DNA from: Candidatus Nomurabacteria bacterium
Lineage (GTDB): Bacteria > Patescibacteriota > Minisyncoccia > Phycocordibacterales > UBA9973
Length of the DNA: 64,000 bases
Reading direction: 5' to 3'
NCBI GenBank assembly: GCA_026395915.1
Contig: JAPLXU010000013.1
Coordinates: 16,428 to 80,427 of the forward strand
Shown here: positions 5,462 through 61,767 of the stretch, one piece after another
How the letters are laid out: every line of letters starts with the position of its first letter
Position numbering within the stretch: the stretch's first letter is position 1
Translations under genes and position numbers: made by a program
Notes under the pieces: model-generated
What the model was told of the DNA's origin: nothing
The model's database searches: none
Seen by the model: only the letters and a program-made list of their open reading frames with translations

Positions 5462-6343
5462 ATGGATAAAGAAAGCATACAGCAAAAAATAAATGAGTTA
5501 GAGACGCAGATGCTCGCGCCGGAATTTTGGAATGATAAAAACAAAGCGCAAACGATCATCAAAGAAATTGCCGATTTGAAAAGTTCGCTTTCGGGCGTCG
5601 GTAAGTTTGATAAGGGTAACGCTATTGTGACTATTTTTTCCGGCGCAGGCGGGGACGACGCGGAAGATTTTTCGGCTATGCTTTACAGAATGTATAGGAA
5701 ATTTTTTGAAAAAAAAGGCTGGGGAATGGAGCTTATTCATTCGAACGAGAACGATCATGGAGGTTACAGAAATATAACTTTTGAAATATCCGGTAAAAAT
5801 GTCTATGGAACTTTGAAAAACGAATCAGGAGTGCATCGCTTGGTCCGCATTTCGCCTTTCAATGCCAAACAGCTTCGTCACACTTCTTTTTCGATGGTGG
5901 AAGTTATACCGAAATTTGAAAAGACTAACAGCGCGGACATAGAATTGCCGGAAAAAGACATAGAAATTTCTATTGCTCGTTCTGGTGGTCCCGGAGGACA
6001 GAATGTGAACAAGAGAGAAACAGCGGTGAGAATTGTGCATAAACTTACAGGGCTTTCCGTTCACGTGACGTCAGAAAGATCTCAAGCGCAGAATAAAGAA
6101 AAAGCGATAGATATTTTGAAGGGTAAACTTTTTAAAAGAAAGGAAGAAGAAAAAATCGCGAGAGAAAAAGGAATGTACATAAGCAAGACAACTTCCATCG
6201 AGTGGGGGAATCAGATTCGCTCGTATGTCCTTCATCCGTATAAAATGGTAAAAGACCACAGGACAGATACCGAGACTTCCAACGTTGACGCAGTTTTAAA
6301 CGGCGATTTGGATATTTTTATTGAAGCAGAGAAAAATTTGTAA
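5462..6343 (+). CDS. prfB: Peptide chain release factor 2 (short form, no programmed frameshift)
   Basis: GGQ motif ([11 protein letters not shown]). RF2-type SPF motif ([15 protein letters not shown]). 293 aa with truncated domain 1. ATG starts 1 nt after tRNA-Thr. Confidence 0.75.
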
Positions 6344-6359: not shown

Positions 6360-7280
6360 ATGATATTTTCTATATTGATTACAATAATCGGCCTTTCGCT
6401 TTTTGAAACGGTTTCGTCTGTTGATAATGCGATTATCAATGCGGAAGTGCTTTCTACGATGGGCGCGCGGGCTCGGCGCTGGTTTCTTACTTGGGGGATA
6501 CTGGTTGCGGTTTTTGTTGTCCGGGGACTTCTGCCTTTCGTAATAATTTGGGCTTTCAATAAGTCGCTCAATCCGATTCAGATCTTGTCGGCCACATGGT
6601 CGAACGATCCTATAGTTTTGGAATCTATAGAGAAATCGGCTCCGATTTTGCTCGTGGCGGGTGGAATTTTTCTTTTATTTTTATTTCTGCATTGGCTTTT
6701 TCTTGAAGATAAACATCTTGGGTTACCGAGAACGGAGAAATTTTTTATGTCGAAAGGCGTTTGGTTCTATGCGACGGTTTCCATCTTACTCGCAGTTATT
6801 TCATGGTTTGCTCTAAAAGAAAATAGCCTGATGGGTTTTGGAGCTGTTGTTGGCTCAAGCATATTTTTTATTACTCACGGTTTTAAACAGAATGCAGAAG
6901 CACAAGAGAAGAGACTGTCCAATAGTGGGCGTTCCGATTTGAGCAAACTTTTATTTTTGGAAATAATTGATAGCACTTTTTCTGTCGACGGGGTTCTAGG
7001 CGCTTTCGCTTTTACTCTTTCGGTGCCTTTGATTTTGCTCGGGAATGGTCTAGGCGCTTTTATAGTACGAGGTCTAACAATTCGGAACATTGAGCGTATT
7101 AAAAAATATGTTTATTTAAAAAATGGGGCGATGTATTCCATTTTGGTTCTTGGTATAATCATGATATTGCACAGTTTTGGTTTCCGTGTTCCCGAATATG
7201 CTTCTCCGCTCGCCACCTTTTCCATAATCGGATTTTTCTTTTGGAAGTCAAAAATACATCTTAAATTAAATTTTAAATAA
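6360..7280 (+). CDS. TerC/DUF475-family integral membrane protein
   Basis: Polytopic membrane protein with SVDNAIINA and SVDGVLGAFAF-like repeated motifs. Confidence 0.45.
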   Translation: MIFSILITIIGLSLFETVSSVDNAIINAEVLSTMGARARRWFLTWGILVAVFVVRGLLPFVIIWAFNKSLNPIQILSATWSNDPIVLESIEKSAPILLVAGGIFLLFLFLHWLFLEDKHLGLPRTEKFFMSKGVWFYATVSILLAVISWFALKENSLMGFGAVVGSSIFFITHGFKQNAEAQEKRLSNSGRSDLSKLLFLEIIDSTFSVDGVLGAFAFTLSVPLILLGNGLGAFIVRGLTIRNIERIKKYVYLKNGAMYSILVLGIIMILHSFGFRVPEYASPLATFSIIGFFFWKSKIHLKLNFK

Positions 7281-7281
7281 A

Positions 7282-10251
7282 ATGAAAGATTCAGAAAAAA
7301 AATTCAAAGAGGAATATAGCAAGTTGAACAAAGCCCAGAAGGAGGCTGTGGATGCTATCGACGGACCAGTGATGGTGGTGGCTGGACCGGGGACAGGGAA
7401 GACACAGATACTGGCTCTTCGCATCGCGAATATTTTAACCAAGACGGACAACAAAGCAGATAGTATACTCTCTCTCACTTTTACGAACTCCGGTGTGAAA
7501 GCTATGCGCGAACGTTTGCGCGAATATATCGGCGTCGAGGCTTCAAAAATTCATGTTTCCACTTTTCACAGTTTTGGTATGGAGATTATCGAGAAATATT
7601 TTCGTGTTTTGGATTTAGAAGAGATGCCAAAATTGATGGATGAGATGGATTCTGTAGCGATCTACGATGCGATTTTGGAGGATAATGAATGGGAATATAT
7701 CCGTCCGAGGTCAGACGCTTCTAGATATTTTAACGATTTGAATAATTTGATTTCACTCTTGAAACGCGAGCGGATAGATCCTGAAGCTTTCGAAAATTTG
7801 ATAAAAGAGGAAATTGACAGTCTAGAATCCGATCCTGAAAATATCTCTTCGCGCGGGGCGACAAAGGGCGAACTAAAGAAAGATGTGCAAAAAAAGATAG
7901 AAGGATTGGCACGCACACGTGAAGCCGTTAAATTCTATGAATTTTACGAGGAAGTGAAGAAAGAAAAAAACTTTATTGATTACGACGATATCTTTCCATA
8001 TTTGGTGAAAATCATAGAGAACTCAGAAGAAGCATCTTTTGATTTGAAAGAGAAATACCAATATATTTTGATAGACGAGCATCAAGACTCTTCCGGCGTG
8101 CAAAACGAATTTTTGGAAAAAGTTTGGAAATCGGAAGAAAAGCCGAACATTTTCGTGGTGGGTGACGATCGTCAGCTTATCTATGGTTTTTCAGGCGCGT
8201 CTCTTTCTTATTTCGAAAATTTTAAGCATGTTTTTGGAAAAGCCAAGCTGATCACTTTGGAAGAGAATTATCGTTCAACGGAAAATATTTTGAATGCCTC
8301 TCATAGTTTGCTTCAAAGTTCCATTACTGATGGAAAGTTGAAAAGCAGTCATAAAGAAAATTATCCACTTCGTTTGGTTGAGGCGAGCTATTCCCGCGAT
8401 GAAATTATTGCCTGCGCGCTTGAGATAAAAGATAAAATATCAGCAAAAAATAGCGAGAAGAAAGTTGATCTTGACGAGATAGCCATACTTGTCCCCAAAA
8501 ATAAGCAGGCGCGAGAGGCTGTAGCGATTTTGCGAGATATGGGTATACCTGTGGCAGGTGGAGAGAAGTTGAATTTTTTTGATTCAGAAGAAGCACAGGC
8601 TTTCTTACAAGTTTTGAAGATAATTGCGAACCCAGCAGACGAAATTGTTCTTTCCGAATCTTTTTTCAATAAGTTTTCAGGAGTTTTACCACTCGAAGCT
8701 CACAAATTTGCAAAAGAAAATCATATGCGGGAATTTTCTATTTTGAATACCGTTTCGGAAACGCCAACCCTTTTTCAAGATGAAAGTTCTGTGAAAATTT
8801 GGCTAGCGAAATTAAAGTCCTGGATACAAAAATCCAGTGATTTGAGTTTGTATTCTTTGTTGCAAAATATTGGTTCAGAATTTTTGCTTGATACCGCGAA
8901 AAATCATGAAGATTTGATGGTTCGTATAGAGGTTGTACGCACACTTTTGCATTTAGTGCTTGCGCAAATGGAGAAAAATCCAAAAATGACATTGAAAGAA
9001 TTTTTGACTTTTGTGAATCGTCTAGAGTCTTACGGAAAACATATTCCACTCGCTGTATTTTCTGCGGATGTCGGCGTAAAAGTGCTGACGCTTCATGGTT
9101 CAAAGGGCTTAGAATTTGATTATGTGTGGATTGCGCATATGGATGAAAAATCTCTCAGTGGTGGCAGGCATGGCGGTTTCACGCTACCAAAAACATTGGA
9201 AGAGAAAGTTGAAAAGAAAGACGAGGAAGTATTGAAACGCCAACTCTATGTCGCTATTACACGAGCGAAAAGATTCTGCACGCTTTCATATTCCTTGCAT
9301 TCATACGGAGGAGGGGACTTGGAACTTGCAAACATTGTATCTGATCTCGGAGAACATTTTGAAAAGCAAAATGCGGAAGAAACTGAAAAGATAATTTTGA
9401 AAAATGATCCGAGAGCGTACGTGGGAAAAAAGCAGACAGAAAATAAAAATGTCACGTTAGCGGATTTGCAAAAACTGGTTGCTAAAGATTACGAGGATAG
9501 AAAAGTGTCCGTATCGCTTTTGAACAATTTTTTCGAATGCCCTTGGAAATGGTACTTCAGAAATTTGCTTCAGCTACCAGAAGCGAAGAGCGTGAGTTTG
9601 GAATTTGGCAACAAAGTGCATTCATCAATCGACAAGATTCTGAAGCTAAAGAAAATTCCTAAGGAGAAAGATTTAGATGAAATAACAGGTGGAGACAAAG
9701 AAGTTTTAAAAATCGTCTCAAGATGGATAAAAAATAGATTGGGAGAGATAGAACAAAAAAGAGAAAACGAGCGAAGTGTTTCTGTTTCCGACGACAGATT
9801 TCCTCATTTGAATGTCTACGGCAAGATAGACTTGATAGAAAATTTGAACGACAAAAGTGTTCGCGTGACGGACTTCAAAACCGGGAGCGTAAGAAAAAAA
9901 GTAGACATAGAAAAGATTGATGAGCATGGCAGGATGAGTTCGTATATGCGTCAGCTTTCAATGTATTCGTATTTATTAAAACAGAGTCCGAAATGGAAAG
10001 CGGATGTCAGCGAGTCGCGTTTAGAATTTTTAGAAGCAAAAAATGAGAAGGAAAGCATTTATAGTACATTGATTAAAAAAGAACAGATTGATTTGCTTAT
10101 CAAAGATATAAAAGATTACGATGAATCTGCAAAGAAAGGCGAGTGGGTAGATCGTCCTTGCAACTATAATTCCTATGGAAAAAATACTGAATGCGAATAT
10201 TGCAAAATGGCGGAAATTTACACTGGTCCATTATCCAACCAGCCAAAATAA
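7282..10251 (+). CDS. UvrD/PcrA-family SF1 helicase fused to a C-terminal PD-(D/E)XK (RecB/Cas4-like, Cys-cluster) nuclease domain
   Basis: Walker A GPGTGKT, LIDEHQDSS, VGDDRQLIY helicase motifs. C-terminus has DLIE..KTG...Y..QL and a 4-Cys cluster C..(x)..CNYNSYGKNTECEYC. Confidence 0.7.
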   Translation: MKDSEKKFKEEYSKLNKAQKEAVDAIDGPVMVVAGPGTGKTQILALRIANILTKTDNKADSILSLTFTNSGVKAMRERLREYIGVEASKIHVSTFHSFGMEIIEKYFRVLDLEEMPKLMDEMDSVAIYDAILEDNEWEYIRPRSDASRYFNDLNNLISLLKRERIDPEAFENLIKEEIDSLESDPENISSRGATKGELKKDVQKKIEGLARTREAVKFYEFYEEVKKEKNFIDYDDIFPYLVKIIENSEEASFDLKEKYQYILIDEHQDSSGVQNEFLEKVWKSEEKPNIFVVGDDRQLIYGFSGASLSYFENFKHVFGKAKLITLEENYRSTENILNASHSLLQSSITDGKLKSSHKENYPLRLVEASYSRDEIIACALEIKDKISAKNSEKKVDLDEIAILVPKNKQAREAVAILRDMGIPVAGGEKLNFFDSEEAQAFLQVLKIIANPADEIVLSESFFNKFSGVLPLEAHKFAKENHMREFSILNTVSETPTLFQDESSVKIWLAKLKSWIQKSSDLSLYSLLQNIGSEFLLDTAKNHEDLMVRIEVVRTLLHLVLAQMEKNPKMTLKEFLTFVNRLESYGKHIPLAVFSADVGVKVLTLHGSKGLEFDYVWIAHMDEKSLSGGRHGGFTLPKTLEEKVEKKDEEVLKRQLYVAITRAKRFCTLSYSLHSYGGGDLELANIVSDLGEHFEKQNAEETEKIILKNDPRAYVGKKQTENKNVTLADLQKLVAKDYEDRKVSVSLLNNFFECPWKWYFRNLLQLPEAKSVSLEFGNKVHSSIDKILKLKKIPKEKDLDEITGGDKEVLKIVSRWIKNRLGEIEQKRENERSVSVSDDRFPHLNVYGKIDLIENLNDKSVRVTDFKTGSVRKKVDIEKIDEHGRMSSYMRQLSMYSYLLKQSPKWKADVSESRLEFLEAKNEKESIYSTLIKKEQIDLLIKDIKDYDESAKKGEWVDRPCNYNSYGKNTECEYCKMAEIYTGPLSNQPK

Positions 10252-10377: not shown

Positions 10378-11088
10378 ATGAGCACCGAAAATAAAAAAGG
10401 CACAGAGCATCCGCTTTCTATTGTTATAAACGAAGCAGTAAAGATCTTTACTGATTTGGGTTTTGAAGTTGCCAGCGGTCCAGAGCTCGAAGATGTTTGG
10501 CATAATTTCGATGCCTTGAATGTTCCCAAAGATCATCCAGCGCGTGATATGCAGGACACTTTTTACATCAAAGGAGAAGATGGAAAAGTTTTGAGAACTC
10601 ACACCTCGAATGTGCAGATTAGATATATGGAAAACTTTGTGAAGTCCAACAGGAAACCACCGTTTGCGGTCATTTCAGTTGGTAAATGTTTTCGCAATGA
10701 GGCAACCGACGCGACTCATGAGATGCAATTCTATCAGATCGAGGGGTTGATGGTTGGAGAAGATATTTCGATGGCAAATTTGAAAGGAGTGTTATCTCAT
10801 TTTTATAAAAAAATGCTTGGCGAGGACACGAATCTTCGTTTTCGTCCGAGTTTCTTCCCATTTACTGAGCCCTCGATAGAATTTGATTTGAAATATAAAG
10901 GAAAATGGATTGAGATGGGCGGGGCGGGCATGGTGCATCCGAAAGTTTTGGAAAATTGCGGGATTGATTCAAAAAAATACCAAGGTTTTGCTTTCGGTCC
11001 GGGACTCGAGAGGCTCATGGTTATAAAATACGTAATGCCGGACATCAGACCGGCTTATCAAGGCGACTTAAGGTTTAATCAGTTTTAA
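10378..11088 (+). CDS. pheS: Phenylalanine--tRNA ligase alpha subunit (short, catalytic core only)
   Basis: Class II motifs: HPARDMQDTFY, FRNEATDATHEMQFYQIEG, GGAGMVHP..GFAFGPGLERL. Confidence 0.85.
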   Translation: MSTENKKGTEHPLSIVINEAVKIFTDLGFEVASGPELEDVWHNFDALNVPKDHPARDMQDTFYIKGEDGKVLRTHTSNVQIRYMENFVKSNRKPPFAVISVGKCFRNEATDATHEMQFYQIEGLMVGEDISMANLKGVLSHFYKKMLGEDTNLRFRPSFFPFTEPSIEFDLKYKGKWIEMGGAGMVHPKVLENCGIDSKKYQGFAFGPGLERLMVIKYVMPDIRPAYQGDLRFNQF

Positions 11089-11091
11089 TTT

Positions 11092-11484
11092 ATGGAATAT
11101 GTGAAAGATTTTGATGCATGGAATACAAAGAAAAAAATAATTGATCAAAAAGAAACGTCTGATCATGTATTTTTTGCTGAACGTGAAATCTGGTGGGGCT
11201 CGTTAGGATTAAACATTGGATATGAACAAGACGGAAAGAATGAAAATTTTGAGCGTCCTTTGCTTTTGATAAAAAAATTCAATAGAGATATTGTTTTAGC
11301 AGTTCCATTAACAAGTGTTGCAAAGAATAATAAGTTTCATCATAAGTTGAAATCAAGCGGTTCTTTTGTCATACTTTCGCAGATGAGACTTATTAGCACG
11401 AAAAGATTACTTCGTAGAGTGGAGAAAATAACAGATTCGGAATTTGAAGAAATTATTAGTAAAATTAAGAGTTTGTTCCCATAA
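11092..11484 (+). CDS. PemK/MazF-family protein (putative endoribonuclease toxin homolog, orphan)
   Basis: EIWWGSLGLNIGYEQDGKNENFERPLLLIKKFNRDIVLAVPLTS ... SFVILSQMRLISTKRL aligns to the MazF/EndoA core (GSEQ.G.RPvlvi...vaPiTs; ..vl.dqiRtidk.RL). No upstream antitoxin ORF. Confidence 0.6.
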   Translation: MEYVKDFDAWNTKKKIIDQKETSDHVFFAEREIWWGSLGLNIGYEQDGKNENFERPLLLIKKFNRDIVLAVPLTSVAKNNKFHHKLKSSGSFVILSQMRLISTKRLLRRVEKITDSEFEEIISKIKSLFP

Positions 11485-11607: not shown

Positions 11608-11886
11608 ATGGAACTCGAATTAATAGTAATTATTGGATTTATAACGACAGTTTTAACTATCTTGGTAAAAATTGTTGGTTTTCCAGACCAAATAAAGAAA
11701 AATTATCAAAGAAAATCCACTGAAGGAATTTCTACGGCTTTTTATGTACTTTCTTTTATAACATATATTTTTTGGACTATACATGGAATTTTGCAAAATG
11801 ATTGGGTAGTATATTTTGGTCAAGGTCTGGGAATACTAACTACTGGTATCATTGTATTTCAAATATTCTTTTATCATAAAAAATAA
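11608..11886 (+). CDS. SemiSWEET / PQ-loop family small membrane transporter
   Basis: 92 aa, 3 predicted TM helices. PQ-loop-like segment GFPDQIKKNYQRKSTEGIS between TM1 and TM2. Confidence 0.55.
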   Translation: MELELIVIIGFITTVLTILVKIVGFPDQIKKNYQRKSTEGISTAFYVLSFITYIFWTIHGILQNDWVVYFGQGLGILTTGIIVFQIFFYHKK

Positions 11887-11895
11887 TTTTTTGAC

Positions 11896-13716
11896 ATGAA
11901 AATTTCTTACAATTGGCTCAAATCATATATACCAGAAGCTCCCACGCCTGAAAAACTCGCAGAAGTTTTTACTTTTCATATTTGTGAAGTCGAAAGCTTT
12001 GATAGATTACCAAATGGCGACGTTGTTTTTGATTTGAAAATATTGCCGAACCGCGCGCATGATTTGCTTTCTCACCAAGGCATTGCTCGAGAACTTGCTT
12101 CGCTTCTTGATATAAAATTCGTTGATCCGACGGCAAAATATAAAATTCCAAAATCAAAACCGACAAAACTAAAAATAGAAATAAAAAGCAATAAGTGTCG
12201 CCGTTATATAGGCAGAATTATTAGGGGAATAAAAATTGGTCCATCTCCAGAATGGGTAGTAAAACATTTAGAATCCATAGGCCAGAGAAGTATAAATAAT
12301 ATAGTTGATGCCGCAAATCTCGTAATGTTTGATTGTGGTCAACCGACGCATGCTTTCGATTTGGATAAAATACCGGAAGAAAAAATCATTGTAAAGAATG
12401 CTACGGATTTAGAAAATGCTTCCATTACAATGGAAACTCTTGATGGAAAAGTTTGCAAACTGTCGAAAAACGATCTGGTCATAGCTTCTGTCAGCAATAC
12501 ATTAGCTATAGCAGGAATTAAGGGTGGTAAAAAAGCAGAGGTTCATAATGAAACCACAAATATAATTCTCGAATGCGCCAATTTCGATCCTGTGAGTGTT
12601 AGAAAAACTGCGCAAGCCTTGAATATCATTACCGACGCAAAAAAGCGTTTTGAGAATGATTTATCTCCTGAATTAGCCGAGTACGGAATGATGGAACTCT
12701 CAGCGCTTATTTTTGAAATGTGTCCAGATGCGATTTTTGAAGATGTCATTGACGTTTATCCTAATAAGGCTGAACAGAGAAAAGTTTTTGTTTCAGTCGA
12801 TTATATCAACAAGCGTCTCGGCTCGGATTTTTCAAAAAAAGAAATTGAGAATGTTTGGAAAAAATTAAATTTTAAATATGTAGAGAAAAATGGAGAATTT
12901 GAAATCGTGATTCCGTTTTCGAGGATTGATATAAACGATCCATGCGATTTGACGGAGGATGTAATAAGCGTTTTGGGGTACGATAAAATCAAAGAAAAGT
13001 TGCCAGAAACAAAAACTAAATCAAAAATGAATGAAACCTTTGCCAAAATGCTTTGGGCTAGAAACAAACTGCTCGATGATGGATATAGTGAGGTGATGAC
13101 ATACGTTTTCAGAGACAATGGTGAATTGGAAGTATTGGCTTCTGCCTCGGATAAAAAATTTTTACGCACGAATTTAACTGATGGGCTCAAGGAAAGTATT
13201 AAATTGAATCAAACAAACGCGTCGCTTCTTGGAATTGACAAGGTTAGGGTTTTTGAGATCGGGACCATTTTCAAAAAGAAAGGCGAGGAGATGCATGTTA
13301 CGTACGGAGACAAAAAAAATGTTGCCGAAGTCTCTTTGGAAGATTTTTGTAAAGGGCAGATTTTGCAAGGACAGTCCTTAAGAGAGTTTCCCCAAGGACT
13401 GTCCTTGGAAAAATCTAAGGAAACTAAGTTCAAAATGTGGTCCCTGTTTCCCTTTATTGCGCGCGACGTAGCTGTTTGGGTTCCGGAAAATGTAAAAAGC
13501 ACTGAAGTCGCTCAAATAATAAAAGAAAACATGGGAGAAATGGTGGTCCGAGGTCCGGAACTTTTTGATGAATTCAAAAAAGATGGAAAAACTTCTTATG
13601 CTTTCAGATTGGTTTTCCAATCTTACGACAGGACTCTCACCGACGCCGAGGTGAATGAAATTATGACGAAAATAACTGATAAAATAAAAGAAAATGTAGG
13701 TTGGCAGGTGAGGTAG
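11896..13716 (+). CDS. pheT: Phenylalanine--tRNA ligase beta subunit (short form)
   Basis: N-terminus MKISYNWLKSYIPE. B3/B4, B5 and C-terminal anticodon-binding-like regions. 606 aa. Confidence 0.85.
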   Translation: MKISYNWLKSYIPEAPTPEKLAEVFTFHICEVESFDRLPNGDVVFDLKILPNRAHDLLSHQGIARELASLLDIKFVDPTAKYKIPKSKPTKLKIEIKSNKCRRYIGRIIRGIKIGPSPEWVVKHLESIGQRSINNIVDAANLVMFDCGQPTHAFDLDKIPEEKIIVKNATDLENASITMETLDGKVCKLSKNDLVIASVSNTLAIAGIKGGKKAEVHNETTNIILECANFDPVSVRKTAQALNIITDAKKRFENDLSPELAEYGMMELSALIFEMCPDAIFEDVIDVYPNKAEQRKVFVSVDYINKRLGSDFSKKEIENVWKKLNFKYVEKNGEFEIVIPFSRIDINDPCDLTEDVISVLGYDKIKEKLPETKTKSKMNETFAKMLWARNKLLDDGYSEVMTYVFRDNGELEVLASASDKKFLRTNLTDGLKESIKLNQTNASLLGIDKVRVFEIGTIFKKKGEEMHVTYGDKKNVAEVSLEDFCKGQILQGQSLREFPQGLSLEKSKETKFKMWSLFPFIARDVAVWVPENVKSTEVAQIIKENMGEMVVRGPELFDEFKKDGKTSYAFRLVFQSYDRTLTDAEVNEIMTKITDKIKENVGWQVR

Positions 13717-13724
13717 AAATTTTA

Positions 13725-13753
13725 TTGACAAAAAATGGGCAGTTGCTAATATA
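13725..13753 (+). promoter_or_regulatory. Sigma-70-like promoter (TTGACA, 17 nt spacer, AATATA/TAATAT)
   Basis: Consensus -35 TTGACA at 13725-13730 and an AT-rich -10 at 13747-13753, downstream of pheT. Confidence 0.4.
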
Positions 13754-13866
13754 TACAATACAGATGAAAAACTTACGAAAAAACTATTATTTTAGTTTTT
13801 GGGCTCCACATTTGAGAGTCGATTTTTCTTATTGATTTCAACTAATTTAAACGATCAATTGAAAAA

Positions 13867-13895
13867 ATGGGCTCTCAAGTGAGAGCCCATTTTTA
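13867..13895 (+). terminator. Short intrinsic-terminator-like hairpin
   Basis: atgggctctc-aagt-gagagcccat followed by TTTTT. Confidence 0.45.
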
Positions 13896-13966
13896 GTTCT
13901 TCTTTGTTTTCACTGCCCGATCTCGGGATGAGTGAATTGTTCTTGTACAAATAAATCAGTGTTGTT

Positions 13967-14209
13967 ATGGTAAAAAGAATAGAGTCTGGCTGTAAGCTAA
14001 CGTTGGCAGATGAATTGCACCTATCTTTGGTGCTTGGTCCTGGCAATGGCGATTCTCCTAAACCAGAGGATATGCTCCATCTTGAGAGGGGGACGATAGT
14101 TACTGTGGCAGGAGATCATCCTGAAAATGCCTTTGAAATTGGGTTCAGAGTAAACAAAAAACCAGGAACTTTCTATGCTCCAAGGTCGCATTTTGCCGGA
14201 TGTGCCTAA
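13967..14209 (+). CDS. Hypothetical 80-aa protein (alternative: part of a structured ncRNA)
   Basis: ORF in a locally GC-richer segment (about 47% GC). Third codon positions are AT-rich (about 35% GC3) while positions 1-2 are GC-rich, which favours coding. Overlapping antisense ORFs give no similarity I recognise. Confidence 0.3.
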   Translation: MVKRIESGCKLTLADELHLSLVLGPGNGDSPKPEDMLHLERGTIVTVAGDHPENAFEIGFRVNKKPGTFYAPRSHFAGCA

Positions 14210-14302
14210 TGCGCTTGGCATTAACCAAGCAAAGGCTGAGAGTCCTTACGTAAACTCTTCGTGTTCGGCGGGACCGGACAGCATTGGGTGCTATACTCAA
14301 AG

Positions 14303-14340
14303 AACCGCAACGTGCAAAATGAACGTTGCGGTTTTTTTTT
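14303..14340 (+). terminator. Rho-independent terminator
   Basis: ccgcaacg-tgcaaaatgaa-cgttgcgg followed by a 9-T run. Confidence 0.65.
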
Positions 14341-14366
14341 GTAAACAAAATTGTTAGTAAATATGC

Positions 14367-14395
14367 TGGCAAATGCAAAGGAAATTTGCTATAAT
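14367..14395 (+). promoter_or_regulatory. gyrB promoter (TGGCAA, 17 nt spacer, TATAAT), near-leaderless
   Basis: TATAAT at 14390-14395, only about 11 nt before the gyrB ATG at 14407. Confidence 0.4.
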
Positions 14396-14406
14396 GCAAG
14401 TACATT

Positions 14407-16488
14407 ATGGCAAAAGAAAAGGAAGAAAAGAAAGGAAATGGGCATCATTATGATGCTTCAGATATCTCGGTTTTAGAGGGTCTGGAGCCCGTACGGCGCC
14501 GTCCTGGCATGTATATTGGCACCACAGGCCCGGAAGGGCTTCATCATTTGGTGTGGGAGATTTTTGACAACTCTCGCGATGAAGCGATGGGAGGATTTTG
14601 CAACGATATCGAAGTGACTCTTTTGCCGGAAAATCGCGTGCGAGTGGTGGACAATGGACGAGGCATACCTGTCGATATTCACAAAAAAACAAAAGTTTCA
14701 GCTTTGGAAACTGTCATGACGACTCTCCATGCCGGAGGAAAATTCGGCGGAGAAAACAGTGGATACAAAGTTTCCGGCGGTTTGCACGGAGTAGGCGCGT
14801 CTGTTGTGAACGCTCTTTCTATTTATTGCAGAGTGGAGGTTCATAAAGACGGTGGTATTTACATGCAAGAATATTCTCAAGGCAAGAAAAAATCTGCAGT
14901 AAAAAAAATCGGCAATTCGAAACTCCATGGCACGGTAGTGACTTTCGAACCAGACCAAGAAATTTTCAAGGAAATAAAATTCGACTGGAACACGATAGTG
15001 AATCATATCCGCCAGCAAGCGTACTTGGTCAAAGGATTAAAGATTTTGATAATCGACGCGCGAGGATGGGACAACAAAAAAGGTTTGAACGAATCGGATG
15101 TTTTTTATTTCAGAGATCTTGGTTTGGAGCTTCCATCGGTTTCTTTTTATTTCGAAGGCGGACTGATTTCTCTTATAAAATATTACAACAAATTTCAGAA
15201 AGCTATCCAGAGCCATATTTTTTACGTTGAAAAAGAGCTTGATGGCGTGGGAGTGGAAGTGGCTTTGCAATATGTCGATGACATAACCGACCGCATTGTT
15301 CCTTTTGCCAATAATATCAATACTCCAGAAGGTGGAACGCATGTGACCGGTTTCAAAACGGCGCTCACGAGGACTTTGAATACCTACTGCAAAAAAAATG
15401 AAATGATGAAAGAATCCGAAGGTGGATTCACTGGCGAAGACGTCTTGGAAGGTTTGACTGCGGTTATTTCCGTCAAACTTCGTGAGATACAGTTTGAAGG
15501 TCAGACAAAAGCGAAACTTGGCAGTCAAGAAGCGCAAGGGGCTGTGGCAACTGTGTTCGGCGAGGCGTTCAATAATTTCTTGGAAGAAAATCCTGATGAA
15601 GCTAGAGCTATAATCAACAAATCAATTCTTGCCTTGAAAGCTCGCAAGGCCGCAAAGGCTGCCAAAGATTCGATACTGCGAAAAGGCGCTCTCGAAGGCA
15701 TGACGCTTCCCGGCAAGCTCGCAGATTGCCAGAGCAAAGACGCTTCCGAATCCGAATTATTTTTGGTGGAGGGAGACTCGGCAGGAGGTTCCGCCAAACA
15801 GGGCAGGGATCGTCGAACGCAAGCCATACTCCCGCTTCGCGGAAAAATTTTGAACGTTGAGCGCGCTCGGATAGACAAGATGCTTGCGTCCAAAGAAGTG
15901 AAGTCACTCGTCATCGCTATGGGCACTTCGATTGGGGATACTTTTGATCTTTCAAAAATGCGTTATCATAAGATAATTATCGCAACCGATGCTGATGTCG
16001 ATGGATCACACATCCGCACATTGCTTTTGACTTTATTTTTCAGATATTTCAGAGCAGTTGTTGACGCTGGATACATTTACATCGCTCAGCCACCACTTTA
16101 CAAAATAAAAAAAGGTAAGGAAATTTTATATGCTTACACCGATGAAGAAAGGACAAAAATAGTCGGCAAGGGCTTAAATGTCAGTGATATAGAAGAAGTT
16201 GAAACGGATCTTCCAGCCGAGGAAGAGGCGGAGCCGGAAGAAGGTACCGAAGAAGCAAAAAAGAAATCAAACAAAGTTCATATCCAGCGCTTTAAAGGTC
16301 TCGGAGAAATGAATCCGGAAGAACTCTGGGAGACGACGATGGATCCTGCGCACCGCATCCTCAAAAAGGTAAATATCGATGACGCCGAAGAAGCAAATAA
16401 AATCTTTGATATTCTAATGGGTTCCGAAGTCCCGCCGAGAAAGTCTTTCATTCAATCAAATGCCAAATTGGCGGAGATAGATATCTAG
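14407..16488 (+). CDS. gyrB: DNA gyrase subunit B
   Basis: GHKL ATPase (EIFDNSRDEAMGG; GGLHGVGASVVNALS). TOPRIM (LFLVEGDSAGGSAKQGRDR). C-terminal tail. Acidic insert EEEAEPEEGTEE. Confidence 0.9.
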   Translation: MAKEKEEKKGNGHHYDASDISVLEGLEPVRRRPGMYIGTTGPEGLHHLVWEIFDNSRDEAMGGFCNDIEVTLLPENRVRVVDNGRGIPVDIHKKTKVSALETVMTTLHAGGKFGGENSGYKVSGGLHGVGASVVNALSIYCRVEVHKDGGIYMQEYSQGKKKSAVKKIGNSKLHGTVVTFEPDQEIFKEIKFDWNTIVNHIRQQAYLVKGLKILIIDARGWDNKKGLNESDVFYFRDLGLELPSVSFYFEGGLISLIKYYNKFQKAIQSHIFYVEKELDGVGVEVALQYVDDITDRIVPFANNINTPEGGTHVTGFKTALTRTLNTYCKKNEMMKESEGGFTGEDVLEGLTAVISVKLREIQFEGQTKAKLGSQEAQGAVATVFGEAFNNFLEENPDEARAIINKSILALKARKAAKAAKDSILRKGALEGMTLPGKLADCQSKDASESELFLVEGDSAGGSAKQGRDRRTQAILPLRGKILNVERARIDKMLASKEVKSLVIAMGTSIGDTFDLSKMRYHKIIIATDADVDGSHIRTLLLTLFFRYFRAVVDAGYIYIAQPPLYKIKKGKEILYAYTDEERTKIVGKGLNVSDIEEVETDLPAEEEAEPEEGTEEAKKKSNKVHIQRFKGLGEMNPEELWETTMDPAHRILKKVNIDDAEEANKIFDILMGSEVPPRKSFIQSNAKLAEIDI

Positions 16489-17152: not shown

Positions 17153-17551
17153 TTATTTATATAAGAATTTCCATTTGCCTCGACCCGCGATTGGAGGTAA
17201 TCCAGCTCTCAAGATTTTCTCCAAAATTTTCCAAATTTCAGTGTCATCTTTTTTAATTGCCTTCAAGAGAGAAGAATATCTACCAATATCATATTTAGCC
17301 GACATTCTAAAGATAGTAGTCGGACTCATGCAAAGAGATTCAGAGATATATGAAGTTGGAACATCCTTTGACAAAAGGTATATAACCGCAAATCTTTTTG
17401 CTAGCATTATTTTTTCCGTGTAGGTTAAAAAATCGTTTAAGAAAAGTTTTGTCCACGATTTTCTCGCTGATTTTTCAAGGGCAGTACCAAGTTCATTGTA
17501 AAGTTTTTGCAAGTGTTCCTTTTTAAGTTTTTTTGATGATACATGAGGCAT
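17153..17551 (-). CDS. TrpR/YerC/YecD-family HTH protein
   Basis: About 130 aa. Helix-turn-helix segment YISESLCMSPTTIFRMSAKY. Confidence 0.45.
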   Translation of the reverse strand: MPHVSSKKLKKEHLQKLYNELGTALEKSARKSWTKLFLNDFLTYTEKIMLAKRFAVIYLLSKDVPTSYISESLCMSPTTIFRMSAKYDIGRYSSLLKAIKKDDTEIWKILEKILRAGLPPIAGRGKWKFLYK

Positions 17552-23897: not shown

Positions 23898-25643
23898 ATG
23901 AAACAAGAAACAAAAAAATGTCAGAATTGCAAAAAAGAATTCACGATAGAGTCGGAAGATTTTAATTTTTACGAAAAAATAAGAGTGCCCGCGCCGACTT
24001 TTTGTCCTGAATGCAGATTGATCAAGCGTCTGCTTATGCGCAACGAGCGCACTCTTTATAAGCGAAAATGCGATTCTTGCGGTGAAGAAAAAATACTAGT
24101 TTTCCCGAAAGAAAGCGAATATAAAGTCTATTGCCACACTTGTTTTTACAGCGATGATTGGGACGGGCAAACTTATGAAAAAGATTACGATTTTTCTAAA
24201 ACTTTTTTTGAGCAATACAAAGAGCTATATGACAGTGTTCCCAGATTGGGAATTGCTAAACAAGGCTTTCAAGTGAACAGCGAATATGTAAATCGCGCGA
24301 GCGACGTGAAAAATTGTTATCTTATTTTTGCAAGCAACGTCAACGAAGATTGTTATTATGGCGTGGCATATTGGGAATCAAAAAATTGCATGGATTGCTA
24401 TAACGCACGAAAATGTGAGAGGTGTTATGAGTGCATAGATTGTTATAAATGTAACGGCGTGAAGTATTCGAAAGAATGCAACGAATGCATCGATTCCTAT
24501 TTCTTGAACAATTGTCGAAACTGCCAAAATTGTTTCGGTTGCACGAATTTAAGAAATAAAAGTTACTGCATTTTTAACAAGCAATACACGAGGGAAGATT
24601 ATTTGGCGACAATTTCCGAACTCAAGCTTTCGAACGGGGCGGAAATAGAGAAAATCGAAAAAGAAGTGAAAAAGGAATCTCTAAATTACGTTGTACCTTG
24701 CATCGTGGAAAAACATTCGGTGAATGTTTCCGGCAATTGGATTGAGAATTCAAAAAATGTGCAGAATTCTTATAATTGCGACAGGGTGGAAGATGGAAAA
24801 TATTTGTTTGGTGTTTCTGACGCCAAGGACGCTATGGATAACACATATTGGGGAGCAGGAAGCGAGCTAATTTATGAATCGTCCAGTATCGGCAGGCAAT
24901 GTTCGTCGGTATTTTTCTCGAATGAATCTTGGGATCAATTGGTACGAGCTGAGTATTGCATCAATTGTTTTGCTTCCTCGGACTTGTTTGGTTGTGTGGG
25001 GCTTCGCAAAAAGCAGTATTGCATTTTGAATAAACAATATACGAAAGAAGAGTACGAAGAATTGGTTCCTAAAATCAAAGAGCAAATGAAAAATATGCCT
25101 TTTGTGGACAACGTCGATAGAACTATCAGTTATGGCGAATTTTTCCCATCTGACATGCTTCCTTTTGCCTATAATGAATCTATAGCGCAAGAATATTTTC
25201 CAAAAACCGAAAAGGAAGCGCTTGCCGAAGGATATCGCTGGAGAAAACCGGATACGAAAAATTATGTTCCGACAATGTCGGCCGATGAATTGCCGAAAAA
25301 TATTAAACTGGTCAACGACAATATCACAAGTGAAATAATAGCTTGCGCGCACGAAGGGAAGTGCAACGAGCAGTGCACAACCGCTTTCAAAATTGTTTTC
25401 AATGAATTGCAATTTTACCGCGCAAACAATATACCGCTTCCGAAACTTTGCCCGAATTGCCGTCACTACGAAAGATTACTGAAACGCCAGCCGATAAAAC
25501 TCTGGCACAGGCAATGCATGTGTGACAAAGAAAATCACATTCACGGCGCGAATGTTTGCGAAACAGAATTTGAAACTTCATACGCTCCAGACAGGCCGGA
25601 GATTGTTTATTGCGAAAAATGTTATCAACAAGAAGTGTATTGA
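23898..25643 (+). CDS. Cys-rich multi-zinc-ribbon/CxxC-repeat protein, paralog B (unknown function)
   Basis: 581 aa. Same architecture and identical C-terminal 22 aa (TSYAPDRPE.VYCEKCYQQEVY). Central run of C-x2-C units at 9-12 aa spacing. Confidence 0.7.
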   Translation: MKQETKKCQNCKKEFTIESEDFNFYEKIRVPAPTFCPECRLIKRLLMRNERTLYKRKCDSCGEEKILVFPKESEYKVYCHTCFYSDDWDGQTYEKDYDFSKTFFEQYKELYDSVPRLGIAKQGFQVNSEYVNRASDVKNCYLIFASNVNEDCYYGVAYWESKNCMDCYNARKCERCYECIDCYKCNGVKYSKECNECIDSYFLNNCRNCQNCFGCTNLRNKSYCIFNKQYTREDYLATISELKLSNGAEIEKIEKEVKKESLNYVVPCIVEKHSVNVSGNWIENSKNVQNSYNCDRVEDGKYLFGVSDAKDAMDNTYWGAGSELIYESSSIGRQCSSVFFSNESWDQLVRAEYCINCFASSDLFGCVGLRKKQYCILNKQYTKEEYEELVPKIKEQMKNMPFVDNVDRTISYGEFFPSDMLPFAYNESIAQEYFPKTEKEALAEGYRWRKPDTKNYVPTMSADELPKNIKLVNDNITSEIIACAHEGKCNEQCTTAFKIVFNELQFYRANNIPLPKLCPNCRHYERLLKRQPIKLWHRQCMCDKENHIHGANVCETEFETSYAPDRPEIVYCEKCYQQEVY

Positions 25644-25663
25644 AAATATGCTAGAATAAAAAT

Positions 25664-27934
25664 ATGCGACTCAAGACACTTGAAATAAATGGCTTTAAAT
25701 CTTTTGCCCAGAAAACCGTTTTGGAATTCAATAACAGCATCGTCTGCGTGGTTGGCCCGAATGGTTCTGGAAAATCAAATGTTGTAGAAGCTCTCCGTTA
25801 TGTTTTGGGCGAGCAATCTATGAAGTCAATGCGCGGAAAGTCGGGTTTAGACCTTATTTTTAAAGGCTCAAAAAGCTTGTCCAAAGGTTCACGCGCCGGT
25901 GTCACAATCTATTTTGACAATTCCGACAAGGTTTTCAAACTTTCAAATAGCGAAGGAGGGGAGATAAATTTGAATTATGAAACTGTCAGCATTTCTCGCG
26001 AAGTTTATTCTGATGGATTGAACAAGTACATTTTGAATGGCTCGGAAGTTAGGTTGAAAGATATTCACAATCTCTTGGCGTCGGTCAATATCGGTTCCTC
26101 AGGACATCACATCATTTCTCAAGGTGAGGCGGATAGAATTTTAAACGCAAACATGGTGGACAGACGTGAGATGGTGGAAGACGCGCTCGGTCTCAAAATT
26201 TATCAATACAAAATAAAAGAAAGCGAGAGGAAACTCGAGCGAACGGAAGAAAACATGAAAGAGGTGACTCTTCAACGAAGAGAAAACGCTCCGCATTTGA
26301 ATTTTTTAAAAAAACAAGTAGAGAAGTTTGAGAAAGCAAAAGAAATGCAGGCCGACTTGGCTATTTTATATAAAGAATATTTAAGCAAGGAAAGTGTTTA
26401 TCTTGAAAATGAAAAAAACACGCTATCTCTTCAAAAAGATAAACTAAAAAGTGAACTTGAAAACGTTGCAAGCAAAATTTCAGCTACTGAAGATAACAAT
26501 TCTGCCGAGGGTAATAAAAAAATAAACGCCTTGCGTGTCGTTGAAGGCAATTTGAATTCTATTCGCGGAATGAAATCTGAAATGGAGCGCAAGCTCGGCA
26601 GAATAGAAGGAATGATCGAAATGGAAACTCGCAGGGCGGAACAAAATATCGCCGTTGTTGAAATTTCACAAGAAGAAATTAAAGCCGTTATCGCCGACAT
26701 CAACAATTCTATCGATGAAGCTATTTCCAAGAATGACGTGAGCGAAGTTAAACCAATTTTGGAGCGTATCAAAAGTATCTTGAAGAAATTCTCTTCGCAA
26801 AATACAGAAAAGTCCGGCGAAAATATCGAAATAAAAAATCTTAAACAAAGCCAGCAGGAGATTCTCGAAGAGATGAAGGGGATAGAGAGCAAGGAAAAAG
26901 ATATTGCAAAATCAGCAGAACTGCTCAAACAAGAAATAAACAAAGAGATGGAAGCCTTGCGGGATCTCGAACGAGAGAAATTCACTTGGAAGGTCAGGCA
27001 ACAAGAGTTGTCTTCTGCTTTAGAACTTACAGCGATCAAAGAAGGGAATCTAAAAAGCCGAACCGAAGCTTTTCTTAATGAGATAAAAGAAGGTGTGGCG
27101 CTGATCGGGCAAGAGATTTTGGCTTACAAAGATGAAGTTGCGGAAGCCTTGCTTCCGCCAGCTGGCGGAAGCAAGGCTTCCGCAACAACTCAAGAAGAAT
27201 TGAAACGCAAAATTGAAAGGATAAAAATAAAATTGGAAGATGCCGGCCTCGGCAGTGGCGCGGAAGTCCTGAAAGAATTCAAAGAAGTTTCGGAGAGGGA
27301 TGGATTTCTGGCTAAAGAAATGGAAGATTTAGCGAAAAGCATAGAGTCATTGGAAAAATTAATCGCAGATCTCAAAGAAAAAATAGATTTGGAATTCAAA
27401 GAAGGCGTTAGAAAAATCAATGTGGAATTTCAGGAATTTTTCTCTCTAATGTTCGGCGGGGGAACAGGTTCTCTTTCTATCGTGGTTGAAAATAAGAAGA
27501 AAAGGAAAAACGAGTTTGAAGAGGATGAATCTGTCGACGTCGAAAGCTCTGGCGAGTCGAAGGAAGAAATCGTGTTTGAAAAGGGGATAGAAATAAATGT
27601 TTCTCTTCCGCACAAGAAAGTCAAAGAGCTCAATGCTTTTTCAGGGGGAGAAAGATCGCTCACTTCCATCGCGCTTCTTTTTGCCATGTCGCAAGTCAAT
27701 CCGCCGCCATTTCTCGTTTTGGACGAGACCGATGCGGCGCTCGACGAAGCAAACTCTCGCAAATATGGAGACATGCTTGAGAAGTTGTCCAAACATTCAC
27801 AGCTCATCGTCGTCACCCACAATCGTGAGACGATGTCTCGAGCGGGTGTGCTTTATGGAGTGACGATAGGAAGCAACGGAGCCTCAAAACTTCTTTCTGT
27901 GAAATTCGACGAAGCAACTGCTATCGCGAAATAA
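25664..27934 (+). CDS. smc: SMC-family ATPase (short SMC-like chromosome segregation protein)
   Basis: N-terminal Walker A GPNGSGKSN. Long coiled coil. C-terminal signature FSGGERSLTSIALLFAM and Walker B/D-loop FLVLDETDAALD. 756 aa. Confidence 0.7.
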   Translation: MRLKTLEINGFKSFAQKTVLEFNNSIVCVVGPNGSGKSNVVEALRYVLGEQSMKSMRGKSGLDLIFKGSKSLSKGSRAGVTIYFDNSDKVFKLSNSEGGEINLNYETVSISREVYSDGLNKYILNGSEVRLKDIHNLLASVNIGSSGHHIISQGEADRILNANMVDRREMVEDALGLKIYQYKIKESERKLERTEENMKEVTLQRRENAPHLNFLKKQVEKFEKAKEMQADLAILYKEYLSKESVYLENEKNTLSLQKDKLKSELENVASKISATEDNNSAEGNKKINALRVVEGNLNSIRGMKSEMERKLGRIEGMIEMETRRAEQNIAVVEISQEEIKAVIADINNSIDEAISKNDVSEVKPILERIKSILKKFSSQNTEKSGENIEIKNLKQSQQEILEEMKGIESKEKDIAKSAELLKQEINKEMEALRDLEREKFTWKVRQQELSSALELTAIKEGNLKSRTEAFLNEIKEGVALIGQEILAYKDEVAEALLPPAGGSKASATTQEELKRKIERIKIKLEDAGLGSGAEVLKEFKEVSERDGFLAKEMEDLAKSIESLEKLIADLKEKIDLEFKEGVRKINVEFQEFFSLMFGGGTGSLSIVVENKKKRKNEFEEDESVDVESSGESKEEIVFEKGIEINVSLPHKKVKELNAFSGGERSLTSIALLFAMSQVNPPPFLVLDETDAALDEANSRKYGDMLEKLSKHSQLIVVTHNRETMSRAGVLYGVTIGSNGASKLLSVKFDEATAIAK

Positions 27935-61136: not shown

Positions 61137-61715
61137 TTATTGTCTAACTCTTCCAACATTTATAAACAAGTCAGTGATTTTATCATTAGATATTTTATAC
61201 CCAACTGATGCTTTATTTTGTTGTGAAATATCAGATTCAACCCCAATTAATAATTCATCAAAATATAATTTTGGGGAACTTTTTATCAATCGTCGATCTG
61301 GATATTGAGAAGCGATGTAAGCCATATATTCTTTTACTACGGCGTTATTTTGATTAAAGGTAAATATAAGCCCCTTGATTCTTTTTAATTCTTGTATGGC
61401 GCGACTTGTAGAAACTTCACCACAACATGAAGATCCTTCAAGCACTACATATACTTTATCTGCAAAATATTTACTAGCATTACTGAAATCTGACTTATTT
61501 ATTGCTTCTTCAAATGCTACAATGTGTTCAGCAATAGTCACTTGTTGTGTTGGGATTGGTTGATTTTGATTATTTGTCTGTTGCGTTCCAGTATCAACGA
61601 TTGGAGGAGTTTCTGCTTTTTTATTTTCATAAATATAGACACCGCCACCTATCACTAATAATCCTATTATTACTAAAAGCACTGGCACAATGAAACCTTT
61701 TTGTAAGTTTTTCAT
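61137..61715 (-). CDS. Hypothetical membrane-anchored protein
   Basis: N-terminal TM (IVPVLLVIIGLLVIGGGVYI). Gln/Thr-rich linker. Globular C-terminus. No family recognised. Confidence 0.3.
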   Translation of the reverse strand: MKNLQKGFIVPVLLVIIGLLVIGGGVYIYENKKAETPPIVDTGTQQTNNQNQPIPTQQVTIAEHIVAFEEAINKSDFSNASKYFADKVYVVLEGSSCCGEVSTSRAIQELKRIKGLIFTFNQNNAVVKEYMAYIASQYPDRRLIKSSPKLYFDELLIGVESDISQQNKASVGYKISNDKITDLFINVGRVRQ

Positions 61716-61767
61716 ATAGAAATTATATCACAAAGCCAAAAAAGTTATTCACAATAAAAATTTTTAC

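Follow-up and report, generated by a model that had tools for sequence, protein, structure and literature searches.

A candidate accessory cassette between pheT and gyrB of a Candidatus Nomurabacteria genome: a small protein gene flanked by conserved structured RNA

Between the end of pheT at 13716 and the start of gyrB at 14407, an uncultured Candidatus Nomurabacteria bacterium has 690 bp of DNA in the stretch analysed here, a 64,000-nucleotide window of a contig (JAPLXU010000013.1) from a metagenome-assembled genome. We studied this interval on both strands. It holds an 80-codon open reading frame (ORF), here called ORF80 (13967..14209, + strand), whose product is recorded in the protein database as "hypothetical protein NTZ87_01950". 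In our view ORF80 is a genuine gene, whose small product has a predicted SH3-like fold and belongs to a new and very narrow family. On either side of the ORF lies conserved structured RNA absent from Rfam, and both the leader and the 3' untranslated region (3'UTR) are more conserved than the ORF itself. The reading that we favour is that the interval is a self-contained accessory cassette, inserted after the stop codon of pheT and before the promoter of gyrB, and consisting, in this order, of a promoter, a leader with a mini-ORF and a terminator switch, a hairpin, ORF80, a structured 3'UTR and a terminator. The anatomy of the unit and the coding nature of ORF80 are, in our judgment, very likely to be right. 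For the reading as a whole, an accessory unit at a variable pheT–gyrB site with ORF80 under ribosome-dependent attenuation, we estimate a probability of about 0.55. An earlier, sequence-only reading had proposed either a small protein gene or an unclassified noncoding RNA (ncRNA) with its own promoter and terminator; both hold, the protein being ORF80 and the RNA its flanks.

ORF80 and its product

A word-indexed search of 5.8 billion proteins returned the ORF80 protein itself only, and eight further contigs with an identical protein proved to be 100% identical in DNA and were uninformative. Samples with contigs of this strain include SRR25046533, SRR20698638 and ERR15302178. Exhaustive HMMER against 1.84 billion representative proteins found two homologues, P0002 (80 residues, 49% identity, E = 5e-9) and P0003 (66 residues), and a profile search of the same representatives added P0005 (84 residues), making this a four-member family. 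A further profile search from the family gave no new members, and there are no paralogues of ORF80 in the window. Another candidate relative, P0004 (1071 residues, E = 6e-4), was rejected as a repeat protein without a matched stretch. All three homologues are encoded between pheT and gyrB, on the contigs L089, L095 and L100. The window and these three loci form the set compared here; the four intervals align end to end (alignment A3) and have the order leader, ORF, 3'UTR in common. The homology search proposed in the sequence-only reading thus yields relatives, and the pattern seen is not that of an unconserved ORF within covarying nucleotides, the outcome which that reading had named as fatal to a protein.

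The evidence for coding is best set against the possibility that the whole interval is one long structured ncRNA, in which ORF80 would be an untranslated accident of composition. That view can draw on the folding of 13896-14340, which is better than that of shuffled sequences on both strands (z = −3.15 and −3.94), on the covarying hairpins in the flanks, on the empty word-indexed search, and on the lack of a Shine-Dalgarno motif before ORF80. No gene in this genome, however, uses a Shine-Dalgarno motif, and the body of the ORF contains no conserved RNA structure, only weak structure with many broken pairs. In the codon alignment of the four members dN/dS is 0.20-0.44, differences at third positions exceed those at first and second positions in six of six pairs (12/12/26, for example), and the indels are all in frame. 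Nucleotide identity of the ORF among the three distant lineages is 55-68%, and at this distance the protein motifs LVLGPGG and GxxVTV are kept. The codon-usage score of ORF80 stands at the 29th percentile of real 80-codon windows, stop codons excluded, and is matched by one of 83 spurious in-gene ORFs. Together with the same-locus homologues and the confident predicted fold described below, these results bear out the earlier suggestion of a real small protein, and we regard an untranslated ORF80 as very improbable.

Base composition had also attracted attention to the interval, and the segment is indeed richer in GC than its flanks: 0.449 for ORF80 and 0.481 for the 3'UTR, as against 0.285 for the leader and 0.288 for the spacer carrying the gyrB promoter (0.383 for the whole window). 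Since gyrB itself has a GC content of 0.48-0.49, the level in ORF80 and the 3'UTR is ordinary for coding DNA here. First and second codon positions of ORF80 are GC-rich and third positions AT-rich, as had been noticed (0.556/0.432/0.358 at the three positions; the gene mean is 0.473/0.344/0.361). The overlapping ORFs that had been noted on both strands do exist, but they carry no weight as a sign of structured RNA; no overlapping ORF is conserved across the homologous loci, and of the remaining ORFs in the interval none is kept in all four. A 60-codon ORF in the 3'UTR (14175-14357) is open in L095 and L100 and closed in L089, and we do not consider it coding.

The ORF80 protein is predicted to be cytoplasmic. 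Its AlphaFold model is confident and SH3-like, and it superposes on solved SH3-like barrels, as a member of this fold should. Among sequence comparisons, the window protein has no Pfam hit at the gathering score, and one of the four family members matches SH3_9 with E = 0.064; the best match in a search of Protein Data Bank sequences has an E value of at least 0.18. PADLOC, PHROGs, NCBIfam and Pfam gave no significant match, and no relatives were found in a viral structure library or on viral contigs. ORF80 would thus be a small beta-barrel comparable in fold to SH3, KOW and the C-terminal domain of PhnA, without a significant sequence match to these SH3-like barrels and without the proline-rich ligand context of SH3 proteins.

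Leader RNA, mini-ORF and 3'UTR

A sigma-70-type promoter follows pheT at 13725..13752 on the + strand (TTGACA, a TG-extended −10 TAATAT, 10/12 matches in the promoter scan). Its −35 region ATTGACAA and its −10 region are kept in the four loci of alignment A3. The promoter had been recognised in the sequence-only reading with a spacer of 17 nt; the spacer is 16 nt. The RNA that begins after it (13758..13900, + strand, as are all elements described in this section) is a functional leader, to judge from conservation, fold and pairing in the four loci. Between 13758 and 13895 it is 83-88% identical among the three distant lineages. Synonymous sites of pheT and gyrB are saturated at these distances, with differences at 34-72% of sites in the comparison by region and at 57-72% in that made for the leader, so that the leader is the most constrained stretch of the neighbourhood. 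Its minimum free energy is −44.8 kcal/mol (z = −6.98).

Four segments can be distinguished within the leader: GGGCUC (segment 1, 13801-13806), UUUGAGAGUC (segment 2, 13811-13820), GGGCUCUCAAG (segment 3, 13869-13879) and GAGAGCCC (segment 4, 13881-13888). Segments 1 and 2 on one side, and segments 3 and 4 on the other, form similar half-palindromes round a central stem in which 13822-13837 pairs with 13853-13868. The pairing of segments 3 and 4 is part of a first intrinsic terminator (13863..13894, a 14-bp stem), corresponding to the short hairpin with a T-run that had been placed at 13867-13895. Because an A-run precedes it and a T-run follows it, this terminator could act both ways.

The likeness of the two half-palindromes makes two conformers possible. 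In one, segment 1 pairs with segment 2 and segment 3 with segment 4, giving the terminator; in the other, segments 1 and 4, segments 2 and 3 and the central stem make up one long hairpin. The terminator conformer is 100% pairable and the long hairpin 98.3% pairable in the four sequences, and slid controls, in which the partners are shifted by one to three columns, reach at most 57%. L089 has a compensated change, with U for C in segment 4 and A for G in segment 1; its segment 3 retains a G-U pair. One pair of the central stem changes from A-U to G-C. Covariation drawn from four sequences is suggestive but statistically not strong. The anatomy is that expected of an attenuator, with mutually exclusive terminator and antiterminator pairings followed by a U-run of 5-6.

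None of the 4227 Rfam models, those of 6S RNA and of riboswitches included, accounts for these RNAs. At gathering thresholds the window contains three tRNAs only, none in the interval, and at permissive thresholds the interval gives MicX (29.9 bits, threshold 75) and Phe_leader (22.4 bits, threshold 55), both driven by the terminator. The Rfam/Infernal check on both strands, which had been recommended with the sequence-only reading, revealed no known family spanning the ORF. RNase P, tmRNA and the signal recognition particle RNA, already looked for in that reading, were found in the interval at neither threshold, and ARAGORN found no tmRNA. An Rfam scan of 14 related loci gave nothing, and a metagenome pattern scan for the leader returned the known loci only, plus one chance match in an argB-like gene (L097).

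The leader contains a near-leaderless mini-ORF of 23 codons plus TGA (13764..13835, MKNLRKNYYFSFWAPHLRVDFSY), which spans segments 1 and 2 and has its stop within the 5' strand of the central stem. Its homologues are MKNQTQNYYFGFWTPLLRVDFSY in L089, MKNLMKNYYFSYWALHYLRVGFSY in L095, with an in-frame insertion of 3 nt, and MKNLTKNYYFSYWALHLRVGFSY in L100; start, stop and frame are kept in all four loci. The ATG lies 11 nt past the −10 box, a spacing identical to that at gyrB. No gene start in the window has a Shine-Dalgarno motif, and many first genes have an extended −10 (TGnTAnnAT) 6-11 nt before their ATG (for example at 14390-14409, 25640-25666 and 61715-61740). From this it would seem that mRNAs of this organism are as a rule leaderless or nearly so. 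The mini-ORF ATG is therefore in the normal start context of the genome, and the mini-ORF may well be translated. A feature of its peptide is the aromatic run YYFSFW, five aromatic residues in six codons with a mixture of Tyr, Phe and Trp, which is kept in leaders of this kind (type A, to distinguish them from the type B leaders described below). Three features had escaped the sequence-only reading: the mini-ORF, the covarying hairpins in the 5'UTR and the 3'UTR, and the alternative ways of pairing round the first terminator.

Just upstream of ORF80 is a 5'UTR hairpin (13909..13936, UUCACUG-CCCGAUCUCGGG-AU-GAGUGAA) with three covarying pairs (GU/AU/GC, CG to UA and GC to AU). The spacer between it and the start codon (13937..13966) is conserved and A-rich in its 5' part, and it has neither a Shine-Dalgarno motif nor a promoter (A3, A8). 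The promoter scan listed no promoter-like site on the + strand from 13753 to 14365, and an independent ORF80 promoter was sought by scan and by eye and rejected. As there is no promoter-like site between the first terminator and ORF80, expression of ORF80 seems to depend on read-through.

The structured 3'UTR (14213..14340) comprises hairpins at 14213-14230, 14238-14259, 14262-14280, 14286-14298 and 14301-14335. The last of these, with a stem of 15-16 bp and nine U in a run that extends to 14340, is the second terminator, and it confirms the strong terminator claimed earlier ahead of the gyrB promoter (14366-14395 in the promoter scan); it was recognised from folds and alignments and is unlisted in a simple terminator scan. 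Across the alignment of the 3'UTR 96.9% of cells are paired and seven pairs are compensatory, values matched by 0-2 of 500 shuffles, and slid controls reach at most 45%. Identity of 14210-14340 across the distant lineages is 73-79%, and that of the element proper (14213-14340) 75-79%. A covariance model (CM) search also found a short form of the 3' element in remoter relatives (L009 6722-6814 and L010 9210-9306), consisting of the first hairpin, the GAGGGUGNUAUACCC hairpin and the terminator; there it closes a different cassette.

We propose, at slightly less than even odds, that these elements together bring about ribosome-dependent attenuation of ORF80. Transcription would start from the promoter at 13725-13752. 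A ribosome would begin the mini-ORF almost at the 5' end of the RNA and move along segments 1 and 2. Where it has reached the stop codon and covers segment 2, and likewise where there is no ribosome, the pairing of segments 3 and 4 (or the long hairpin as a whole) would form before the U-run and the transcript would end at about 13894. An earlier pause of the ribosome, for example at the Tyr-Tyr-Phe-Ser-Phe-Trp codons over segment 1, would allow segment 2 and the central stem to capture segment 3; the terminator would then fail and RNA polymerase would continue past the conserved hairpin into ORF80, from which the small SH3-like protein would be made. The five-hairpin 3'UTR would finally end the transcript and shield gyrB from upstream transcription. 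What the sequences establish is the anatomy, the coding nature of ORF80, the conservation and pairing of leader and 3'UTR, and the want of a promoter for ORF80 alone; we infer the switching logic, and with it translation of the mini-ORF, the signal that might be sensed and the function of the protein.

Related leaders and the pheT–gyrB junction

Synteny of pheT and gyrB is frequent in related genomes, and in four of them (L009, L010, L011 and L016), also Nomurabacteria, a divergent relative of the leader, which we call the type B unit, lies just after pheT. Its order is an extended −10, a GTG or ATG start 6 nt further on, an ORF of 25-32 codons and a terminator, the 5' half of which is complementary to RRL codons near the ORF end. 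Type B leaders are located at 5928-6069 and 7973-8128 in L009, 5876-6033 and 7842-7983 in L010, 5882-6045 in L011, 5861-6019 in L016 and 37-164 in L036. The cargo is an aminotransferase in L016, and the cargo of L036 we take, by eye, to resemble pyrroline-5-carboxylate reductase (proC). A CM of the type A leader detects type B in L011, L016, L036 and L010 (E values of 5e-4 to 0.05), and conversely the type B CM detects all four type A leaders, that of the window with 29.4 bits (E = 3e-5) and those of L100, L095 and L089. In the CM alignment AGG-CUG-AUA-UUU-GCG-CUG-UAA (R-L-I-F-A-L-stop) stands opposite AGA-GUC-GAU-UUU-UCU-UAU-UGA (R-V-D-F-S-Y-stop). In five type B peptides, which differ in length, the reading frame is intact from the start codon as far as RL[IV]FAL-stop. 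On these sequence comparisons, the two types are probably one family.

The type B leaders also bear on whether leader and ORF80 belong together. The interval might contain two separate genes: an independent small RNA, some 135 nt long and running from promoter to terminator (13760-13895), possibly dual-function with its 23-residue peptide and acting in trans, and an ORF80 mRNA that the leader does not regulate. The leader has a full promoter and a strong terminator, a very stable fold and the highest nucleotide conservation of the locality, all of which would suit such an RNA. In L009 no cargo ORF was recognised between the type B copy at 7973-8128 and the gyrB promoter at 8314-8344, so leaders may stand alone. 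Precedents are reported for attenuator RNAs and for leader peptides that work in trans, namely rnTrpL and peTrpL (PMC6614838, PMC7298713). Such a division would, however, leave ORF80 without a start of its own, there being no promoter-like site at 13895-13966. Each of the four loci has leader, ORF and 3'UTR together and in one order, and the conserved alternative pairing of segments 1-4 is a requirement of a cis-acting switch. We regard two independent genes as the main rival reading, though an unlikely one.

The content of the pheT–gyrB junction differs widely among genomes. In L027, L040, L020 and L029 the spacer is minimal (28-90 bp) and holds the gyrB promoter alone; elsewhere it reaches 2.8 kb. 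L030 has a BsaWI-like restriction-modification system at this place, L009 a DUF6922 and AbiEii pair, L016 the aminotransferase (class I/II), L031 SPFH and MscL proteins, and L048 a C39-like peptidase. The junction is thus a variable hotspot in Nomurabacteria/Paceibacteria. At the gyrB promoter we observed a conserved inverted repeat, GGCAAAT ... ATTTGC, across the −35 to −10 region, which could be an operator site or the footprint of cassette insertion. In L009 the gyrB promoter sequence is duplicated (6893-6920 and 8314-8344) and drives the DUF6922/AbiEii pair.

Exchange is also suggested within the cassette. L095 and L100 are close relatives (dS of 0.15 for pheT and gyrB), and their leaders, 3'UTRs and gyrB promoters are 98-100% identical. 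The ORF body and about 25 nt upstream of it, in contrast, have 53-75% identity with sharp edges, dS of 0.93 and dN/dS of 0.20. This divergence island (779-1018 of L095 compared with the ORF at 6001-6255 of L100) lies between flanks that are 93-100% identical. Within the ORF the two differ by 44 transitions and 26 transversions, which affect all bases. Decay of a pseudogene was rejected as the cause because dS of 0.93 exceeds the neutral level of 0.15 in the flanks and dN/dS is 0.20. A diversity-generating retroelement was rejected because the spectrum is ordinary and has no adenine-specific pattern, although a template repeat and a reverse transcriptase were not specifically searched for. The simplest reading of the sequences is that the ORF allele was replaced by recombination within the conserved flanks.

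Hotspot and allele replacement together hint at a role in conflict. ORF80 or the aromatic mini-peptide might be the effector of a strain-exchanged toxin/antitoxin, defence or anti-defence module, a view that is compatible with the anatomy of an attenuator. Its appeal lies in the restriction-modification system and the AbiEii/DUF6922 pair at the same site in relatives, in a PemK/MazF toxin gene between pheS and pheT of the window, in the L095/L100 island, and in the evolution of ORF80, which is faster than that of its neighbours (dN of 0.19-0.50 vs 0.02-0.27). Other cargo of the hotspot, however, is metabolic or membrane-related (the aminotransferase; SPFH with MscL), the defence, phage and domain collections and the viral contigs searched above hold no relative of ORF80, both peptides lack a transmembrane segment, and the promoter scan showed none on the antisense strand. 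We consider such a module improbable. A type I toxin-antitoxin system in particular was rejected, there being no transmembrane stretch in either peptide and no minus-strand promoter at 13717-14406.

Two genes (11092-11484 and 11608-11886) are inserted between pheS (10378-11088) and pheT (11896-13716) of the window. One encodes the PemK/MazF-like toxin (Pfam E = 6e-11), without an obvious adjacent antitoxin, and the other a 92-residue PQ-loop/SemiSWEET-like membrane protein. In L089 and L100 pheS adjoins pheT, and a link between ORF80 and PemK was discarded because both of these loci carry ORF80 homologues without the toxin. On the other side of the interval, past gyrB and a HAD hydrolase and about 3 kb downstream, a Trp_repressor-family protein of 131 residues is encoded at 17153-17551 on the − strand (Pfam E = 2e-7).

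To return to the cassette with an attenuated ORF80, several observations weigh against it. Only four loci are known, three independent lineages and one close pair, and the AlphaFold2 model was built on these four sequences. L095 has an in-frame TGA at codon 67 (1001-1003), after which its frame remains colinear with the protein of L100; the window allele terminates five codons short of the L100 allele (TAA at 14207-14209, where L100 has GAA). The window frame past this TAA is still colinear with L100, and the C-terminal 5-18 residues of the family, which overlap the first 3'UTR hairpin, appear dispensable. The leader offers only 1-2 compensatory pairs, and its covariation is equalled or exceeded in 17-97 of 500 shuffles. 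The long hairpin, too, precedes the U-run, so that read-through would require a suitably placed ribosome. The YYFSFW run is of mixed amino acids and most type B relatives lack an aromatic run (L010b, with FFF, is the only type B leader to have one), and nothing connects the gene under the leader with aromatic amino acids. In L009a and L036, both type B, the nucleotides are kept and the peptide frame is not, so that much of what looks like peptide conservation may reflect constraint at the RNA level.

A wider proposal can be made for the leaders of both types, which we offer as a speculation with a rather low chance of being right. They would be undescribed cis-regulators of Patescibacteria, in which the leaderless mini-ORF ending in R-[LV]-x-F-[AS]-[LY]-stop would sense the nascent peptide or translation status and gate read-through into the cargo of the hotspot. 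The leader and the 3' element would serve as homology arms for the exchange of cargo alleles, and ORF80 would be a rapidly exchanged SH3-like protein of conflict or host interaction.

Comparison with known leader systems

Gene regulation in bacteria of the Candidate Phyla Radiation is, to our knowledge, almost unstudied, and we found no literature linking Patescibacteria with leader peptides or attenuators. The locus is a compact and testable candidate for leaderless, translation-coupled control in a genome free of Shine-Dalgarno motifs. It also yields a new family of small proteins and a defined chromosomal hotspot for the exchange of accessory and defence genes. A short GC-rich intergenic island, moreover, need not be either protein or RNA: in this one the annotated hypothetical ORF is real, and conservation is highest in the unannotated RNA to its left and right.

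The closest resemblance in anatomy is to the trpL and pheL/pheM attenuators (Rfam Phe_leader, RF01859). Common to these and the present leader are a short 5' ORF overlapping segments 1 and 2, mutually exclusive 1:2, 2:3 and 3:4 pairings, a terminator with a U-run, and aromatic codons (YYFSFW in our case). Unlike trpL and pheL, the leader ORF here is near-leaderless and has no Shine-Dalgarno motif, and its codon run mixes Tyr, Phe and Trp. The gene that follows is neither biosynthetic nor an aminoacyl-tRNA synthetase gene, and encodes an 80-residue protein without a family match. The synthesis or charging genes found downstream of a classical attenuator thus do not follow this leader, and a strong terminator precedes gyrB. 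The position also differs from that of pheL/pheM, the element being downstream of pheT and not upstream of pheST.

A second comparison is with the nascent-peptide arrest leaders TnaC and Erm/Cat, short regulatory ORFs in which the C-terminal residues and the stop codon matter. In sequence the mini-peptide resembles none of the known arrest peptides. The codons in question also make up segment 2 and some of the central stem, and RNA constraint may therefore explain their conservation. The likeness lies in the R-[LV]-x-F-[AS]-[LY]-stop ending common to type A and type B leaders.

Finally, leaderless polycysteine short ORFs (sORFs) of mycobacteria are reported to act as attenuators that sense cysteine through runs of Cys codons (bioRxiv 10.1101/834739). 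The leader described here has no Cys codons, and belongs to the phylum Patescibacteria and not to the Actinobacteria, and the mechanism put forward for it is tentative. The two systems would be alike in having a leaderless first cistron that controls the genes downstream, which is what we propose for the mini-ORF and ORF80.

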